Positions 103-20,010 of a DNA stretch of 22,360 nt are shown one piece after another. Position numbers and translations under genes: made by a program. How positions within the stretch are numbered: position 1 is the stretch's first letter; each line of letters begins with the position of its first letter. The stretch spans positions 1-22,360 of the IMG/VR virus record IMGVR_UViG_2737471845_000014; one strand, 5' to 3'. This DNA comes from a virus (Duplodnaviria > Heunggongvirae > Uroviricota > Caudoviricetes). The notes beneath the pieces were generated by a model. The model saw only the letters and a list, made by a program, of their open reading frames with translations, was not told where the DNA came from and did no database searches.

Positions 103-2250
<2,148 letters not shown>

Positions 2251-2302
2251 ACAAACTCCCTTTAAAATGGCCGATGGCACCTGTCTATGATAGGTGGCAA
2301 AT

Positions 2303-3028
2303 TCAGAAAAGAGAAGATTGCTGTGGAATAGCCGGAACTGCTCCGATCTCTGGAAGCGTTTTACGTAAGTCTTCCCACAGGGTATGTACCAGTTCCGGGG
2401 CCTGGGCAATGTCTGGCGTATGTAAAAAAAGATAAGGCGTAGTGGTCTGATGCCACTGCGCTAATTTTTGTAACCAGACCTGAAATAATTCCCGGTTTTG
2501 CGTCATATCATCACTACCGATAAAACGGATCAGCGGATTTGTCGCCGTCAGTACAGCATGTACCGGAACTTTAGGTTTTTTTCGTTGAGCGTCGCGAATA
2601 GCTTCACTGTGTGGACGTGCTGCATGAACCGGGCGGCTGTCTAAAATCACCCGATTAACGCCGCGCTGATGTAAACCGCGATTAAGCGTTTGTTCCTCTT
2701 CCCCTTTGGCGAAAAACTGTGGATGGCGGACTTCCACACCATAATTAAATTCGCCAGGGAGAGAATCGAGAAAATGCCAAAGCGCAGGCAGCTCCCGTGG
2801 GCCGAATGTGGCAGGCAGTTGCAGCCAGTATTGCCCAATGCGCGGAGCCAACGGTGACATGCGGGTCAAAAATTCAGTCACTAAATCATCGCAATGTCGT
2901 AATGCTGCCTGATGCGAAATGGTCGCCGGAAACTTAAAACAGAAGCGGAAGTCATCTGTGGTCTGTTCACGCCAGCGCAGGACAACCTCGGGTTTCGGCA
3001 GGGCGTAAAGCGTGGTGTTGCCCTCCAC
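2303..3028 (-). CDS. yecE: DUF72-family protein YecE, 5'-truncated by prophage insertion
   Basis: 241-aa ORF beginning at a GTG (3026-3028), with sequence VEGNTTLYALPKPEVVLRWREQTTDDFRF typical of DUF72/YecE; the conserved N-terminal ~30 residues are absent. The frame stays open upstream only to a stop at 3086-3088, inside the integrase 3' end. Confidence 0.75.
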   Translation of the reverse strand: MEGNTTLYALPKPEVVLRWREQTTDDFRFCFKFPATISHQAALRHCDDLVTEFLTRMSPLAPRIGQYWLQLPATFGPRELPALWHFLDSLPGEFNYGVEVRHPQFFAKGEEEQTLNRGLHQRGVNRVILDSRPVHAARPHSEAIRDAQRKKPKVPVHAVLTATNPLIRFIGSDDMTQNRELFQVWLQKLAQWHQTTTPYLFLHTPDIAQAPELVHTLWEDLRKTLPEIGAVPAIPQQSSLF

Positions 3029-3054
3029 GCAGTTAACATGACGGGTATTGAAGG

Positions 3055-4368
3055 CTAACCCACTGATTTTAATAAGTCTCTTGTGTCACTTTGGTGACCA
3101 TGGGACATCATTGGGACATAATCTGCCAGCTTCTGATTCAGCATTGCGATCTGTTCTGCATTACTGTCAGTCATCCATGCTCCGTATACATTGAACACCA
3201 TCTGGGCACTTGCATGGCCCATCTGGCTGGCAATGAAGCTTGGGTTTGCTCCGGCAGATAATGACCAGCACGCATAAGTGTGTCGTGACTGGTATGCTTT
3301 CCGGTGCCTGATGCCCGCACGCTTAATGGCTGTTTCCCATGAGTCGCCAATAGAATCTACCTTGTAGATAAAACCGACCTGTTTGCTTTTTCTAACCACC
3401 TGGGGGTTAAATACGAAAGTACATTCATGGTTCACTGTACGTCCATATTCACGTAGTTGAACCTTGATGTGGTGCTGCTTACCCAGTCTTGTCATTTCAG
3501 CCTGATTTTTCAGGACACTGATAGCGGGCTGGATAAGATGCACAACCCTGTTTGTACTTGCTTCAGTTTTAGGTAGAGTGAACTCACCGAGTTTCGTATA
3601 ATTGCGCCTGATAGTAATTGTTCCTGCTTTCAGATCGATATCTTCCCAGGCCAGGGAGACCAGTTCACCATGACGCATTCCTGTGTACACAGCCAATGAC
3701 CACAGGTTTTTTGTCTGCTGATGCCGGCAAGCATCTATCAGGCGAATAAATTCGTCACGAGTTAGCGGATCTGGCTCTGCCCTGGCTCTTTTAAGAGGCT
3801 TAATTCCCTCGAAGGGATTTGCTTCTAAGTAACCGTGATCTGCAGCAAACTGAAACATTCCAGCGATTGTCGTCATATAATAATTTACAGTAACGACGCT
3901 CCGTCCTCTTGCTGGTGCTTTGTCTTTCGTTGAATTCTGATATCCGGTCAGCAAATCTTTCCTGATATACAGTAATTCCTCTTTGGTCACCGTTGACACC
4001 AGTCTGCTACCTCCAATTTTCGGAACCACCGTTCTTGCAACGGATTCATAGCGATTGAATGCATTTGCAGAGATTTCCATGCGTTTCAGATCCAGCCACT
4101 TTTCTTCAAGCTCTTTCACCGTAATTTCTTTTTTATTTACCCCAAAAGCCTTGAGGTTAGGAGAGTCAGGGAACTGCGCAGCGTAATCAAAGTTTCCTGT
4201 ACGAATGGCAAAACATACAGATGTCCGCAGCTCTCCGGCGATCTTCCTGTTCTTGGCAGTGTCAGGGACACCAAGATTTTCCCTGACACGTTTACCTTTA
4301 AAATTAAACCAGATGCGTAATGTGCCACCGTGGTTTTCGACGCCTGTTGGATATTTGACTTTATCCAT
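3055..4368 (-). CDS. int: Phage tyrosine integrase
   Basis: 437-aa ORF with tyrosine-recombinase C-terminal motifs (…RHTYACWSLSAGANP…, HASAQMVFNVYGAW); GGAGG Shine-Dalgarno 6 nt before the ATG at 4368; stop TAG at 3055-3057 abuts yecE. Confidence 0.92.
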   Translation of the reverse strand: MDKVKYPTGVENHGGTLRIWFNFKGKRVRENLGVPDTAKNRKIAGELRTSVCFAIRTGNFDYAAQFPDSPNLKAFGVNKKEITVKELEEKWLDLKRMEISANAFNRYESVARTVVPKIGGSRLVSTVTKEELLYIRKDLLTGYQNSTKDKAPARGRSVVTVNYYMTTIAGMFQFAADHGYLEANPFEGIKPLKRARAEPDPLTRDEFIRLIDACRHQQTKNLWSLAVYTGMRHGELVSLAWEDIDLKAGTITIRRNYTKLGEFTLPKTEASTNRVVHLIQPAISVLKNQAEMTRLGKQHHIKVQLREYGRTVNHECTFVFNPQVVRKSKQVGFIYKVDSIGDSWETAIKRAGIRHRKAYQSRHTYACWSLSAGANPSFIASQMGHASAQMVFNVYGAWMTDSNAEQIAMLNQKLADYVPMMSHGHQSDTRDLLKSVG

Positions 4369-4423
4369 CGATACCTCCAGACGCCCAAGAGCGATACGAG
4401 CTTACATATTTCATGGTATTAAA

Positions 4424-4660
4424 TCACCCAGGTTGTTTGTTTTTCATTGAAGCGACCCAGGCATCGATTGCTTTTCTGTTATACATACATTCGCTGGAAG
4501 GTTTTGGATTACCGTCAGGCGATACGTGAATATACTCTCTTCCTACCATCCAGCATTCTTTCCGGGCCCGGAGAATTGTGCCTGGTTTGAGCCCGGTAAT
4601 TGCGATAAGAACGCTTTCACAAACCCATTCATTGGGAGCCAGTTGAATCACATTGCCCAT
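4424..4660 (-). CDS. xis: Excisionase (DUF1233-type Xis)
   Basis: 78-aa ORF directly upstream of int on the same strand; the LIAITGLKPGTI…GREY…VSPDG…SEC pattern resembles excisionases of P22/HK620-type int-xis modules; GAGGT RBS. Confidence 0.75.
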   Translation of the reverse strand: MGNVIQLAPNEWVCESVLIAITGLKPGTILRARKECWMVGREYIHVSPDGNPKPSSECMYNRKAIDAWVASMKNKQPG

Positions 4661-4668
4661 GCATTACC

Positions 4669-4815
4669 TCACACAACACTCAGCCCACGGCAGTGGCACC
4701 ACACTTCAAGCATTCGTTTCACAATTTCACGGCAGTAGAAACCGTCAACATCTCGCGTCAGGTCATAGCGATTGCCGTAACGCTGGCGTACCCATAGCTC
4801 AAACGCTTTATTCAT
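4669..4815 (-). CDS. Hypothetical small protein (48 aa), not in the supplied ORF track
   Basis: Hand translation of the reverse strand gives MNKAFELWVRQRYGNRYDLTRDVDGFYCREIVKRMLEVWCHCRGLSVV, with an AAGGAAG RBS 6 nt upstream of the ATG at 4815 and tight packing between neighbouring genes. Confidence 0.35.
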   Translation of the reverse strand: MNKAFELWVRQRYGNRYDLTRDVDGFYCREIVKRMLEVWCHCRGLSVV

Positions 4816-5504: not shown

Positions 5505-6332
5505 TTATTTAATCTGGATAAATGGTGTATTGGCACCACTGGTCATGTATTGCGGCAGTGTACCGTTCCACTTGTTGATGGCTTCCAGCTCCATGACGCC
5601 TGGGTTCTGGCGCAGAGCTTCGCCGCGTAAACGAATGGCATCGGCTTCTGCCTGGGCTTTTGTTCGAATGGCATCAGCCTGTCCGGCAGCTTCCGCACGT
5701 AGCATGTTGGCCTCCGCTTCACGTTGCTTGACTTCCTGTTCGCGCTGCAGGGTTTTCTGGTTTGCCGTGACTTTGGCGTTAATGCTGTCGATAACGGTTG
5801 GAGGGTATTCCGGTTTACCTACATAAGAGAGGCTCATTACCTGAATGCCGATGGGTGTCATCTCTTCCTGAATGTCTTTAAGTGCGGCATCCAGTAGTTC
5901 AGACTTGCCGCCGTCGATAAATTTGTCAGTGGTCATTTTGCTGGCCAGCCGATTGAGTGCGTCGGCAATTTTCTGGCGCAGGTCAGTGTCGGTAATGTCA
6001 TCCACGCCTTTGCGGTAGGTCTGAAACACCGTGGTAACTTTGGATGGATCAACTTTGTAGGCCACACCGATGTGATAGCCGATGGTTGTACCGTCACTCA
6101 TCTGGAAACTGAACGGTTCATCGTAGGTCTTCATTTGTTTGAAGGTGGGGAAGATATAAACTTCAGTATTCCAGCCAGTCCAGTAGCGACCAACACCGAC
6201 CACCTCACCGACGCCTTTGTCGTCGCCCAGTTTATTTACCTTGATGCCAACATTACCTGGTTCAACGCGATCGCAACCGACAAGGCCAATTGTCGGCAGA
6301 ACAATGGCTAAAGCAAAAATAATTTTTTTCAT
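5505..6332 (-). CDS. SPFH/band-7 (prohibitin/HflC-like) domain lipoprotein
   Basis: 275-aa ORF with lipoprotein signal peptide and lipobox (MKKIIFALAIVLPTIGLVGC), then an SPFH-like core and an Ala/Glu/Arg/Gln-rich coiled-coil tail (EQEVKQREAEANMLRAEAAGQADAIRTKAQAEADAIRLRGEAL), as in HflK/HflC/YqiK. Confidence 0.8.
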   Translation of the reverse strand: MKKIIFALAIVLPTIGLVGCDRVEPGNVGIKVNKLGDDKGVGEVVGVGRYWTGWNTEVYIFPTFKQMKTYDEPFSFQMSDGTTIGYHIGVAYKVDPSKVTTVFQTYRKGVDDITDTDLRQKIADALNRLASKMTTDKFIDGGKSELLDAALKDIQEEMTPIGIQVMSLSYVGKPEYPPTVIDSINAKVTANQKTLQREQEVKQREAEANMLRAEAAGQADAIRTKAQAEADAIRLRGEALRQNPGVMELEAINKWNGTLPQYMTSGANTPFIQIK

Positions 6333-18556: not shown

Positions 18557-19435
18557 TTAAAGTAGTTTCCTATCTGCCGCCGCTCTGTGGCGTATAACCT
18601 TAGTAATACTATAGCGTGGTTTAGACAGCGCGCCATTTGTTTCTTTTGTTGTTTCTGTCAGTTCTACAACAAAAAGATCACCCTTACAGAATGCTGCTTG
18701 GTTGTGTTCAACCCGTTCAAGAAAAGCCTCATCTTTCATAGATGCGCTAACTTCTTCGCCATTTGGCAGGATGATATCCCAGCTTTTGCCTTGCTTGAAT
18801 CGAACATTAGCAAAATGTACATTAGCTTGGCGTGTCGTTACGTGCGTTTTCTCGACAAAGGTGGATTTTGCAGTTTTAAAACTTACTGCTTCAGCTTGCG
18901 TCACCCTGACTACCTTATGCTTCTGCTGTGAAACTGAGAACGTGGATGGTTTTTCAGTCTGCAGGGGTTTATAGATTAATTTATCCAGTTCTTTTCGGAT
19001 GATTGGACTGGTTATTAATTTTTGAATGTCGTTACTGCATTTAACCTTCTCACCATCCACTTCGATTTCTGCTGTATCTTTTTGTTCATCGACGACAATG
19101 GAGCTGATTTTACGCCCTTTGAGCCATTCGATTATCCCGAGTACGCCACCTGCGGCAACTCCACCACCTGCAACGAGGCCAAGGGCGTTAATAGTTTTTA
19201 TGCTCCCCATCACAGCAACAAGCAAAGTAAATGAACCTTCTTTTGTTGCCTTGATGTTGACTTTCGGCTCTGCTGTTTCGCCATTAATTATTTTTTCGGC
19301 GTGTTCAATCAGGGCACTAAGAGAGGTTAAGGCTTCGCCTAATGTTTTCGCGTCGATCTGATTATCTGCGTATGCCTCTCCACCGTAGGCAATTTCGATT
19401 TCTGTTATTGGCATGTTTTCGAGTTGCTGCGTCAT
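18557..19435 (-). CDS. Hypothetical protein with a central glycine-rich TM segment (about 292 aa), first gene of the operon
   Basis: ATG at 19435 (GGA upstream; the ORF track's GTG at 19468 is the alternative); central hydrophobic stretch (LGLVAGGGVAAGGVLGIIEWL); C-terminal ~190-aa K/E/T-rich domain; no recognisable family. Confidence 0.6.
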   Translation of the reverse strand: MTQQLENMPITEIEIAYGGEAYADNQIDAKTLGEALTSLSALIEHAEKIINGETAEPKVNIKATKEGSFTLLVAVMGSIKTINALGLVAGGGVAAGGVLGIIEWLKGRKISSIVVDEQKDTAEIEVDGEKVKCSNDIQKLITSPIIRKELDKLIYKPLQTEKPSTFSVSQQKHKVVRVTQAEAVSFKTAKSTFVEKTHVTTRQANVHFANVRFKQGKSWDIILPNGEEVSASMKDEAFLERVEHNQAAFCKGDLFVVELTETTKETNGALSKPRYSITKVIRHRAAADRKLL

Positions 19436-19555
19436 CAAAAGCATCCTTTGCGCAAGAGAAATAGCCACAGGATACAGATAATTATGAAAAAATCACTAAC
19501 GCGTACGCAAAAACTATCTTAATCTGTTAAGAGTGGTCGCTTCGCCACACAACTT

Positions 19556-19700: not shown

Positions 19701-19776
19701 GGCCCTTTAGCTCAGTGGTGAGAGCGAGCGACTCATAATCGCCAGGTCGCTGGTTCAAATCCAGCAAGGGCCGCCA
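19701..19776 (+). tRNA. tRNA with CAU anticodon (Ile2/lysidine-type or Met)
   Basis: 76 nt: acceptor GGCCCTT/AAGGGCC, anticodon loop CTCATAA, T-loop TTCAAAT, encoded CCA; resembles E. coli ileX/ileY-type tRNA from memory. Confidence 0.8.
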
Positions 19777-19777
19777 A

Positions 19778-19854
19778 CCGCCACTAGCTCATCAGGAAAG
19801 AGCGTCAACCCTTTAAGTTGAGTGTGCGAGGTTCGAGTCCCCGGTGGCGGTCCA
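19778..19854 (+). tRNA. tRNA-like gene with atypical anticodon loop (apparent UUU, C at position 33)
   Basis: 77 nt: acceptor CCGCCAC/GTGGCGG, D-arm GCTC…GAGC, anticodon stem TCAAC/GTTGA with loop CCTTTAA, T-arm CGAGG-TTCGAGT-CCCCG with one A-C mismatch, encoded CCA. Confidence 0.5.
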
Positions 19855-19856
19855 GT

Positions 19857-19932
<76 letters not shown>

Positions 19933-19935
19933 TAT

Positions 19936-20010
<75 letters not shown>

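Follow-up and report, generated by a model that had tools for sequence, protein, structure and literature searches.

Positions 3019–3125 of the 22,360-nucleotide stretch of viral DNA analyzed here (hereafter the window) are very probably (probability roughly 0.93) the int-proximal attachment junction of a temperate phage resembling phiP27, formed by Int-mediated recombination between attP and a site in the host gene yecE, with yecE inactivated while the prophage is resident. The junction is an ordinary, already described phiP27-type attL in yecE, and the prophage is stx-free. An earlier note on this DNA had located a junction between prophage and host within yecE, where the yecE ORF starts at a GTG without its conserved N-terminus 26 nt from the int stop, and had called yecE a known site for Stx-type phages and the prophage free of stx at the usual position; all of these points held up in our analysis. 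A passage in one review that cites Recktenwald & Schmidt 2002 gives yecE as the phiP27 integration site (PMC8065619), and Stx1a, Stx2a, and Stx2d phages have been reported at yecE, which diverse Stx and non-Stx phages occupy (Nakamura et al. 2021, PMC8112680). Table 1 lists the features of the locus.

Table 1 Host genes, attachment-site elements and recombination genes at the yecE junction (window coordinates).
Feature	Position	Strand	Evidence and comments
cmoB	103-1074	(-)	K-12 and SE11 annotations, ORF listing
cmoA	1071-1814	(-)	K-12 and SE11 annotations, ORF listing
yecN	1855-2250	(-)	K-12 and SE11 annotations, ORF listing
yecE (DUF72) 3' remnant	2303-3028	(-)	K-12 codons 32-272, from first canonical start; ORF listing, Pfam, identity
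Host-side half-site GTGGAGGGCA	3019-3028	(-)	Right arm of attB inverted repeat; candidate core-type Int site (putative function)
11-bp identity core TTAACTGCGTG	3026-3036	(-)	Four-way alignment; phiP27 record annotation
Upstream extension of yecE frame	3029-3088	(-)	19 open codons, TGA at 3086-3088; translation
Phage-side half-site TACCCGTCAT	3038-3047	(-)	Alignment; candidate core-type Int site
Tyrosine integrase (int), 437 aa	3055-4368	(-)	Stop 3055-3057; N-terminal arm-DNA-binding domain
Candidate IHF-consensus-like site AATCAGTGGGTTA	3056-3068	(-)	20 nt from core, overlaps int stop codon
Candidate arm-type Int sites, two direct ATGTCCCA copies	3101-3119	(-)	In int 3' coding region, 11 nt apart
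Excisionase (xis), 78 aa	4424-4660	(-)	Directly upstream of int; PHROG 539, E 7e-40

Host flank and the yecE remnant

The host flank had the gene order cmoB-cmoA-yecN-yecE, the same as K-12. Genes yecN, cmoA, and cmoB lie downstream of yecE and are co-oriented with it, and the prophage now parts them from yecD and its upstream region. The minus-strand yecE ORF encodes 241 aa, and its GTG start at 3026–3028 corresponds to Val32 of the 272-aa K-12 YecE, leaving residues 1–31 absent from the ORF. This missing part includes the N-terminal 'MIYIGL' segment, which aligned with 'MIRLGL' of E. faecalis EF0366 (PDB 1VPY). The ORF retained a match to Pfam PF01904 (DUF72) of 147 bits over profile positions 22–215 of 217, compared with 170.9 bits over positions 10–215 for K-12 YecE.

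The remnant was 98.7–100% identical to yecE of K-12 and other strains including MB06172. Homology to uninterrupted yecE, of which 4,862 empty sites were counted, ended at 3036, or at 3048 with mismatches allowed, and host-derived DNA thus defined runs to 3036, beyond the ORF start. The earlier note had named an intact in-frame yecE N-terminus, or homology ending elsewhere, as findings that would count against a junction here. By alignment, the full-length YecE N-terminus (residues 1–31, the MIYIGL segment, and the yecD-coupled ATG) was absent at the junction, where host homology stops at codon 29.

In the mechanism that we favor, Int would exchange attP and attB within their common TTAACTGCGTG, leaving the lysogen at its int-proximal end with a phage half-site, the core, and a host half-site. 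yecE is split: codons 29/32–272 lie here, and codons 1–28 together with a copy of the core are found beside yecD at the far prophage end, going by E. coli SE11 as a proxy. The remnant is without the translationally coupled yecD-yecE ATGA start, and because it lacks this ATGA start, a canonical start, a Shine-Dalgarno sequence, and the conserved N-terminus, yecE is probably inactive while the prophage is resident. Excision by Int and Xis would be expected to restore yecE precisely.

Attachment core and half-sites

We aligned attB from K-12 and MB06172, the window, the SE11 attR, the ends of phiP27, and the contiguous attP of phage CharmingMan. The 11-bp core was common to attB, attL, and attR, and 10/11 positions were found in the CharmingMan attP. 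It is exactly the sequence of the misc_features 'attL' (1–11) and 'attR' (42565–42575) of the phiP27 record AJ298298, and it spans YecE codons F29 (part), N30, C31, and V32. The relation attB x attP -> attL + attR held base for base across the aligned sequences. Judged from these alignments, strand exchange must take place within the core or immediately beside it.

The earlier note had expected the attachment core within 3029–3090, beside the int stop. The core does lie next to the int stop, but it includes the GTG and falls only partly inside that interval. The alignment to an uninterrupted yecE that the note had proposed defined the core, and the matching attR was visible in SE11 as a proxy and not in the window: the only exact TTAACTGCGTG copy in the window is the one at the junction, and the search for attR within the window returned one other match (11626, 1 mismatch), which we attribute to chance.

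The attB sequence, TGCCCGCCACTTTAACTGCGTGGAGGGCA, contains an imperfect inverted repeat of the form TGCCCGCCAC-N9-GTGGAGGGCA (in full, TGCCCGCCAC-TTTAACTGC-GTGGAGGGCA). A scan of attB with arms of 6–8 nt gave 7/8 matches in three overlapping registers centered on the core, extended by eye to 9/10. On the phage side of the window junction, TACCCGTCAT stands in place of the host TGCCCGCCAC and is identical to it at 7/10 positions. Within it, phiP27, the window, and CharmingMan all retain the element CCCGTCA, which reads GCCGTCA in the 297-type Stx phages described below. The reconstructed attP pairs across the core as CCCGTCA-N11-TGACAGG (6/7), and the phage att site, TACCCGTCAT-GTTAACTGC-GTGACAGGGC, is related to attB. 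These putative core-type sites, arranged as an inverted repeat, appear to flank a short overlap region as in a lambda-type att site.

Integrase, excisionase and accessory sites

Int contained the Pfam domains Arm-DNA-bind_2 (84.6 bits) and Phage_integrase (66.9 bits). Its protein identity by blastp was 98.6% to phiP27, 85.8% to CharmingMan, and 75.2% to EH297, and the gene was 98.1% identical to phiP27 int at the nucleotide level. Counterparts of the excisionase were annotated as 'excisionase family protein' in SE11 and as L02, 'putative excisionase', in phiP27.

The two ATGTCCCA copies (TGTCCCA) near the int 3' end are the only exact copies in the 22-kb window. Since 12/100 shuffles yielded at least two matches in the window, two copies alone are not statistically decisive. 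TG(T/C)CCCA occurred at the same int-proximal place in CharmingMan, and the distal arm of SE11, phiP27, and CharmingMan carried it 4–5 times, all in one orientation, such that the position and orientation of the arm repeats are conserved across the three phages. Differing in sequence from the core, the repeats are candidate arm-type Int sites of the two att arms, which the arm-binding domain of Int presumably engages. The IHF pattern WATCARNNNNTTR had five matches in 22 kb vs 1.95 expected. Its match near the core, AATCAGTGGGTTA, is also present in the phiP27 and CharmingMan attP, a conservation that could equally reflect int coding.

Relation to phiP27 and prophage integrity

The window junction shares its 11-bp core, target gene, crossover point, and xis with the Stx2e phage phiP27 (AJ298298 / NC_003356), as well as the int-proximal arm, both ATGTCCCA repeats included. 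In an alignment to phiP27, 64% of the prophage part of the window matched with 93.6% identity, and the match reached approximately to the phiP27 cos site. Unlike phiP27, the window is without stx2e, the methylase, and the ileZ/argO module, and its lysis cassette (holin, SAR-endolysin-like, and Rz) differs. The window spans Q (17494–17907) to the holin (20303), the slot for stxA/stxB between Q and the lysis genes, and no stx was found there. Searches of the window with phiP27 stx2e by blastn and tblastn gave chance matches only (E >= 0.28). The position of stx2e in phiP27 is taken here by a minus-strand three-gene cassette with a PDC-S42 candidate defence protein and by four other tRNA genes.

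The junction might instead be a fossil, the end of a cryptic or decayed prophage with a dead att site and a permanent disruption of yecE. Many E. coli prophages are defective, with the ompW prophages as a case (PMC8112680), and such a reading would accommodate both the single visible prophage end and a backbone that is mosaic in comparison with phiP27, which covers 64% of the query. We nevertheless consider this unlikely. The full-length, 437-aa int product matches the Int of a sequenced Stx2e phage as given above and xis is intact. Compared with phiP27, neither the core and half-site nor the two arm-type repeats carry mutations. The repressor, replication, Q, lysis, and HNH genes are likewise uninterrupted ORFs in the window.

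The yecE frame upstream of the GTG

Translation upstream of the GTG read *HKRLIKISGLAFNTRHVNC-V, which is 19 open codons back to the TGA at 3086–3088 and agrees with the roughly 19 codons through the int 3' region given in the earlier note. The note had also suggested that the int 3' end reads into the yecE frame. We found that the two genes are read in different frames with a 1-nt offset: the stop codon of int begins at 3057, and yecE codons begin at 3058, 3061, and so on. The yecE frame overlaps ~10 codons at the end of int in a different register, and 26 nt (3029–3054) separate the int stop from the GTG. An Int-YecE fusion or read-through product was rejected on account of this offset.

The 19 phage-derived codons (3029–3088) contained no ATG, GTG, or TTG, and no such in-frame codon was found upstream of the core in any of four phage types. 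Sequence inspection found no purine-rich Shine-Dalgarno within 15 nt upstream of the GTG. A promoter and terminator scan of 1700–4700 gave counts at or below shuffled expectation. On the minus strand, it detected no promoter-like site preceding the remnant, nor any terminator-like site in the gap from int to the remnant; the nearest terminator candidates on that strand were at 2547 (in the remnant) and 2164 (in yecN).

In SE11, PGAP begins the yecE reading frame at an ATT corresponding to window 3071–3073 and calls the resulting 256-aa ORF a 'DUF72 domain-containing protein' (WP_049768377.1; SE11 locus 3054–3824, window 2303–3073) rather than a pseudogene. This version scored 160.1 bits against DUF72 vs 147 for the GTG version, with the additional 13 bits contributed by phage-derived residues. 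The phage-side likeness to yecE consists of T-R-H-V-N-C-V vs A-R-H-F-N-C-V in the host, and the phage arm restores at most ~8 yecE-like codons, of which T-R-H is accounted for by the half-site TACCCGTCAT.

The earlier note had raised the possibility that the phage supplies a new 5' end for the remnant. In its strongest form, lysogens would make an N-terminally remodelled, active YecE' from read-through transcripts, either from the ATT or by re-initiation at the GTG after int, and the yecE-like phage codons would have been kept for that reason. The gain in DUF72 score fits this account, particularly as the match then reaches profile position 10, where that of intact YecE also begins, and so do the 19 codons of open frame in phage DNA and the failure of PGAP to flag a pseudogene. 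The R-H and N-C-V residues persist across the phiP27-type, 297-type, and CharmingMan phages, with codon differences of the synonymous type (CGC/CGT, CAC/CAT), and int and the remnant are co-oriented at close range with no terminator-like site found between them on the minus strand. However, ATT initiates very poorly in E. coli, the other start is without the Shine-Dalgarno looked for, and none of the four phage types offers an in-frame ATG, GTG, or TTG upstream of the core. The 297-type frame is open for only ~7 codons, and every version loses at least residues 1–16, and up to 1–31, including the conserved MIYIGL. The conserved nucleotides are also the ones that make up the left arm of the expected Int core-binding inverted repeat. 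We regard a functional YecE' as very improbable, and rejected a replacement 5' end supplied by the phage as the main reading given the missing canonical start and the confinement of the likeness to the half-site. A low-level truncated or chimeric YecE-derived protein may be made in the lysogen. If YecE' were nonetheless real, integration would bring an uncharacterised DUF72 protein under the transcriptional control of the phage, and would not be a plain knock-out.

Under the attachment-site reading that we prefer, the phage-side likeness to yecE is best explained as the sequence requirement of a core-type Int site. Since the conserved phage-arm nucleotides form the left arm of the inverted repeat, their retention would be explained without selection on yecE. 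The inverted-repeat reading of attB would likewise explain why two Int lineages that are 75% identical strike the same nucleotides and why their phage arms are faintly yecE-like.

Far junction and distribution among genomes

Window positions 2250–3350 were 100% identical to E. coli SE11. The far junction (attR) was examined in SE11 and phiP27 as proxies, as this prophage's own far end lies outside the window. In SE11, the other prophage end carries the missing yecE 5' end in the form of a 34-codon pseudogene, next to yecD, ~45 kb away in the record. By analogy, the far end of this prophage would read yecD, yecE codons 1–28, TTAACTGCGTG, ACAGGGCC/ACACGGCT, and then 4–5 TG(T/C)CCCA repeats.

Among 5,426 complete E. 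coli genomes, the int-yecE junction was present in 399 (120-nt junction probe) to 491 (1.1-kb probe), a frequency of ~7–9%, and 4,862 had an intact yecE site. The 297-type junction was found in 100 genomes vs 399 for the phiP27 type. In a whole-window megablast, the best coverage by any complete E. coli genome was 75%. Misassembly, or an ORF boundary arisen by chance, can be dismissed almost entirely, as the finished chromosome of SE11 contains both the identical 1.1-kb junction and the complementary one, and the former recurs in the 399–491 independent complete genomes.

Other integrators and annotation of the locus

The yecE prophage of the commensal E. coli SE11 (NC_011415, ~2,122,5xx-2,167,3xx) shows both junctions, and its 100% match to window 2250–3350 takes in int, the core, the yecE remnant, and yecN. 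Its late region is unlike that of the window, with lambda-like head and tail genes and an M15 endolysin, and the two diverge beyond the early region. The 297-type Stx phages (EH297, AJ431361; O145:H28 phages, LC5678xx) target the same yecE nucleotides as the window, with the junction CCGTCACATTAACTGCGTG|GAGGGC and the order xis-int-core-yecE remnant. Their Int is 75% identical to that of the window in protein and 72% in nucleotides, and their annotated identity segment is 19–21 bp vs 11 bp in the phiP27 type. They further differ in their phage arm, with the shorter open frame noted above, and most carry stx.

Lambda-type integrators that carry a duplicate of their target gene's end, such as phage 21 and e14 in icd and the tRNA-gene integrators, also combine an arm-binding tyrosine integrase with a core in coding sequence and likeness beyond the core. 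Such phages replace the 3' end of their target, and the gene stays complete and functional. At yecE it is the 5' end that is lost, with ~8 similar codons and no start codon provided in its place, and yecE is not reconstituted because of this. Assessed as a gene-restoring integration, the junction failed, since the chimeric gene had no canonical start and only ~8 yecE-like codons.

The prophage boundary in the window is fixed at 3026–3036, and the element is an Stx-free member of the phiP27 group. The 'DUF72 domain-containing protein' autoannotated from an ATT overlapping int is a chimeric remnant, best handled as a disrupted gene. The survey counts can serve as a reference for typing yecE occupancy in STEC surveillance; beyond correct annotation, the junction has little significance. 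Names in existing records vary: the phiP27 record labels the int-proximal junction attL, the EH297 record 'attR'.

A phiP27-type junction in yecE

The host side of the window, cmoB-cmoA-yecN-yecE, follows the K-12 gene order cmoB-cmoA-yecN-yecE-yecD-aspS, and the chromosome of the commensal E. coli SE11 is 100% identical to window positions 2250-3350. The prophage junction inside yecE described in the earlier note was confirmed and its interpretation there supported, with corrections to the position of the core and to the continuity between the integrase (Int) and yecE frames. The junction corresponds to the phiP27-type attL already known from yecE; here its carrier is an Stx-free relative, and the feature is ordinary and previously described. 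Int of phiP27 shared 98.6% protein and 98.1% nucleotide identity with that of the window, compared with protein identities of 85.8% for CharmingMan and 75.2% for the Stx phage EH297. The phiP27 alignment covered 64% of the sequence from the core to the window end at 93.6% identity and stopped near the phiP27 cos site. The best coverage of the window by any complete E. coli genome searched was 75%. The literature agrees that yecE is a known integration site of Stx phages: one review cites Recktenwald & Schmidt 2002 for phiP27 (PMC8065619), and Nakamura et al. 2021 (PMC8112680) listed yecE as occupied by Stx1a, Stx2a, and Stx2d phages, and by non-Stx phages too, the att measuring 21 bp.

Coordinates of features in the host flank, at the junction and in the prophage portion of the window
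Feature	Position	Strand	Remark
cmoB	103-1074	-	host gene
cmoA	1071-1814	-	host gene
yecN	1855-2250	-	host gene
DUF72/yecE ORF	2303-3028	-	241 aa; GTG start at 3026-3028
att core	3026-3036		11 bp
IHF-consensus match	3056-3068		candidate site
integrase	3055-4368	-	437 aa; stop at 3055-3057; Arm-DNA-bind_2 domain
ATGTCCCA pair	3101-3119		candidate arm-type sites
excisionase	4424-4660	-	78 aa; same orientation as integrase
SPFH/Band-7 domain protein	5505-6332	-	early-left region
506-aa ORF	11523-13043	+	probably spurious
HTH antitoxin	11735-12043	-	early region
Gp49/HigB-like toxin	12033-12362	-	early region
Q-like antiterminator	17494-17907
three-gene cassette	17921-19468	-	303-aa product at 18557-19468
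tRNA Met(CAT), Lys(TTT), Thr(TGT), Gly(TCC)	19701-20010	+	upstream of holin
holin	20303

Attachment core and site anatomy

All sequences were turned to yecE sense and aligned: the empty sites (attB) of K-12 and MB06172, the window junction, the SE11 opposite junction, both ends of the phiP27 record, and the contiguous attP of phage CharmingMan. attB reads …TATGCCCGCCACT-TTAACTGCGTG-GAGGGCAAC…, the window junction …AATACCCGTCATG-TTAACTGCGTG-GAGGGCAAC…, and the SE11 far end …TATGCCCGCCACT-TTAACTGCGTG-ACAGGGCCA…. The segment common to all three, TTAACTGCGTG, is identical to the 11-bp "attL" (1-11) and "attR" (42565-42575) features of AJ298298 (phiP27) and covers YecE codons F29 (part) to V32. Comparison with uninterrupted yecE loci, the check proposed with the original observation, defined the core. 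A matching far junction was seen in SE11 and the phiP27 record, that of the window's own prophage falling outside the window; in SE11 it adjoins yecD, ~45 kb from the first junction, and holds a 34-codon yecE pseudogene. The core had been placed within 3029-3090, which is only partly right, since it begins at 3026 and so takes in the GTG.

Centred on the core in attB is an inverted repeat, TGCCCGCCAC-TTTAACTGC-GTGGAGGGCA (K-12 yecE locus 2270-2300; window 3019-3047). Our scan scored TGCCCGCCAC-N9-GTGGAGGGCA at 7/8 matches in three overlapping registers, and the 9/10 figure comes from extending these registers by eye. Int-proximally, attP has TACCCGTCAT, and on the other flank GTGACAGGGC, with CCCGTCA and TGACAGG matching at 6/7 across an N11 spacer. 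This layout is as expected of lambda-family integrase core-type binding sites flanking a short overlap region, and strand exchange would occur inside the (G/T)TTAACTGC spacer. The phiP27-type and 297-type Int lineages, with only 75% protein identity, use one crossover point: Int of the 297-type phages, those described by Nakamura et al., has diverged, yet yecE is broken at the same nucleotides, between CCGTCACATTAACTGCGTG and GAGGGC. The ATGTCCCA octamer occurs only twice in the 22-kb window, 11 nt apart and within the int 3' coding region. TG(T/C)CCCA recurs at the corresponding position of CharmingMan, and the opposite arm in SE11, phiP27, and CharmingMan contains 4-5 copies with this orientation; these repeats are candidate arm-type sites. 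The IHF-consensus match, AATCAGTGGGTTA, lies 20 nt from the core. Every protein-binding assignment at the att site is a prediction from such motifs.

Reading frame and fate of yecE

As the earlier note stated, the yecE-like ORF starts at a GTG and the int stop lies 26 nt away. This GTG is Val32 of K-12 YecE (272 aa). Upstream of the GTG the yecE frame translates as *HKRLIKISGLAFNTRHVNC, exactly the 19 open codons estimated, closed by TGA at 3086-3088. The conserved DUF72 N-terminus was also correctly described as missing, because the Pfam match shortens from profile positions 10-215 (170.9 bits) in intact YecE to 22-215 (147 bits) in the ORF, and the MIYIGL… stretch, which aligns with MIRLGL… of the solved DUF72 structure EF0366 (1VPY), is absent. 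The claim that the integrase 3' end reads into the yecE frame did not hold. A 1-nt shift separates the two frames, so int does not continue into yecE; the open yecE frame runs across the final ~10 codons of int in a different register.

The suggestion that the phage may supply a new yecE 5' end was not supported either. Phage-derived codons (…SGLAFNTRHVNCV vs host …TSLEEYARHFNCV) do raise the DUF72 score by 13 bits (160.1 vs 147), and for the disrupted yecE of SE11 PGAP calls an intact 256-aa "DUF72 domain-containing protein" (WP_049768377.1; 3054-3824 of the SE11 prophage/yecE locus). The start of that protein is an ATT in phage DNA (window 3071-3073), which gives a 19-nt overlap with int; the genuine yecE 5' fragment, at the other SE11 prophage end, carries the pseudogene flag. 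However, the window, phiP27, CharmingMan, and EH297 all lack an in-frame ATG, GTG, or TTG upstream of the core, and EH297 has only ~7 open codons in the yecE frame. The GTG has no preceding Shine-Dalgarno sequence, the ATGA coupling of yecD-yecE in the intact locus is lost, and at least 16 N-terminal residues are absent under any reading. The yecE-like nucleotides (CCCGTCA vs CCCGCCA) coincide exactly with the inverted repeat's left half-site, which explains their retention with no need for selection on YecE. On this evidence we infer that integration inactivates yecE in the lysogen and that precise excision would restore the gene; a low-level chimeric YecE product is improbable.

Occurrence among E. 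coli genomes

The survey covered 5,426 complete E. coli genomes: 120-nt probes found the intact attB in 4,862, the phiP27-type junction in 399 (491 with a 1.1-kb probe), and the 297-type junction in 100; by these counts the junction is both frequent and real. Three further matches in this genome set (H29, H30, and H96) included one genome in which two places match and yecE homology stops at ~2649 of the window, another with just 141 nt left beside yecN, and a DUF72 fragment on a 439-kb record. These suggest further insertion or deletion events at yecE in a few genomes.

The stx position and other cargo

The earlier note was right that stx is missing from its usual position: the window spans the Q-like antiterminator to the holin, where phiP27 has its methylase/tRNA/stx2e module, and blastn and tblastn searches of the window with phiP27 stx2e returned chance matches only. 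In the stx2e slot, between the Q-like antiterminator and the tRNA/lysis genes, the window instead carries the three-gene cassette. Its 303-aa product matched the PADLOC candidate defence family PDC-S42 (E 3.3e-53) and had no Pfam domain, and its 81-aa and 128-aa partners matched only PHROG families of unknown function. The four tightly packed tRNA genes after the cassette take the position of ileZ and argO in phiP27.

Pfam assigned an early-left gene to SPFH/Band-7, in disagreement with the "putative serine protease" annotation of its phiP27 homologue, L05. The Gp49/HigB-like and HTH genes are apparently a toxin-antitoxin pair and lie antisense within the long 506-aa ORF.
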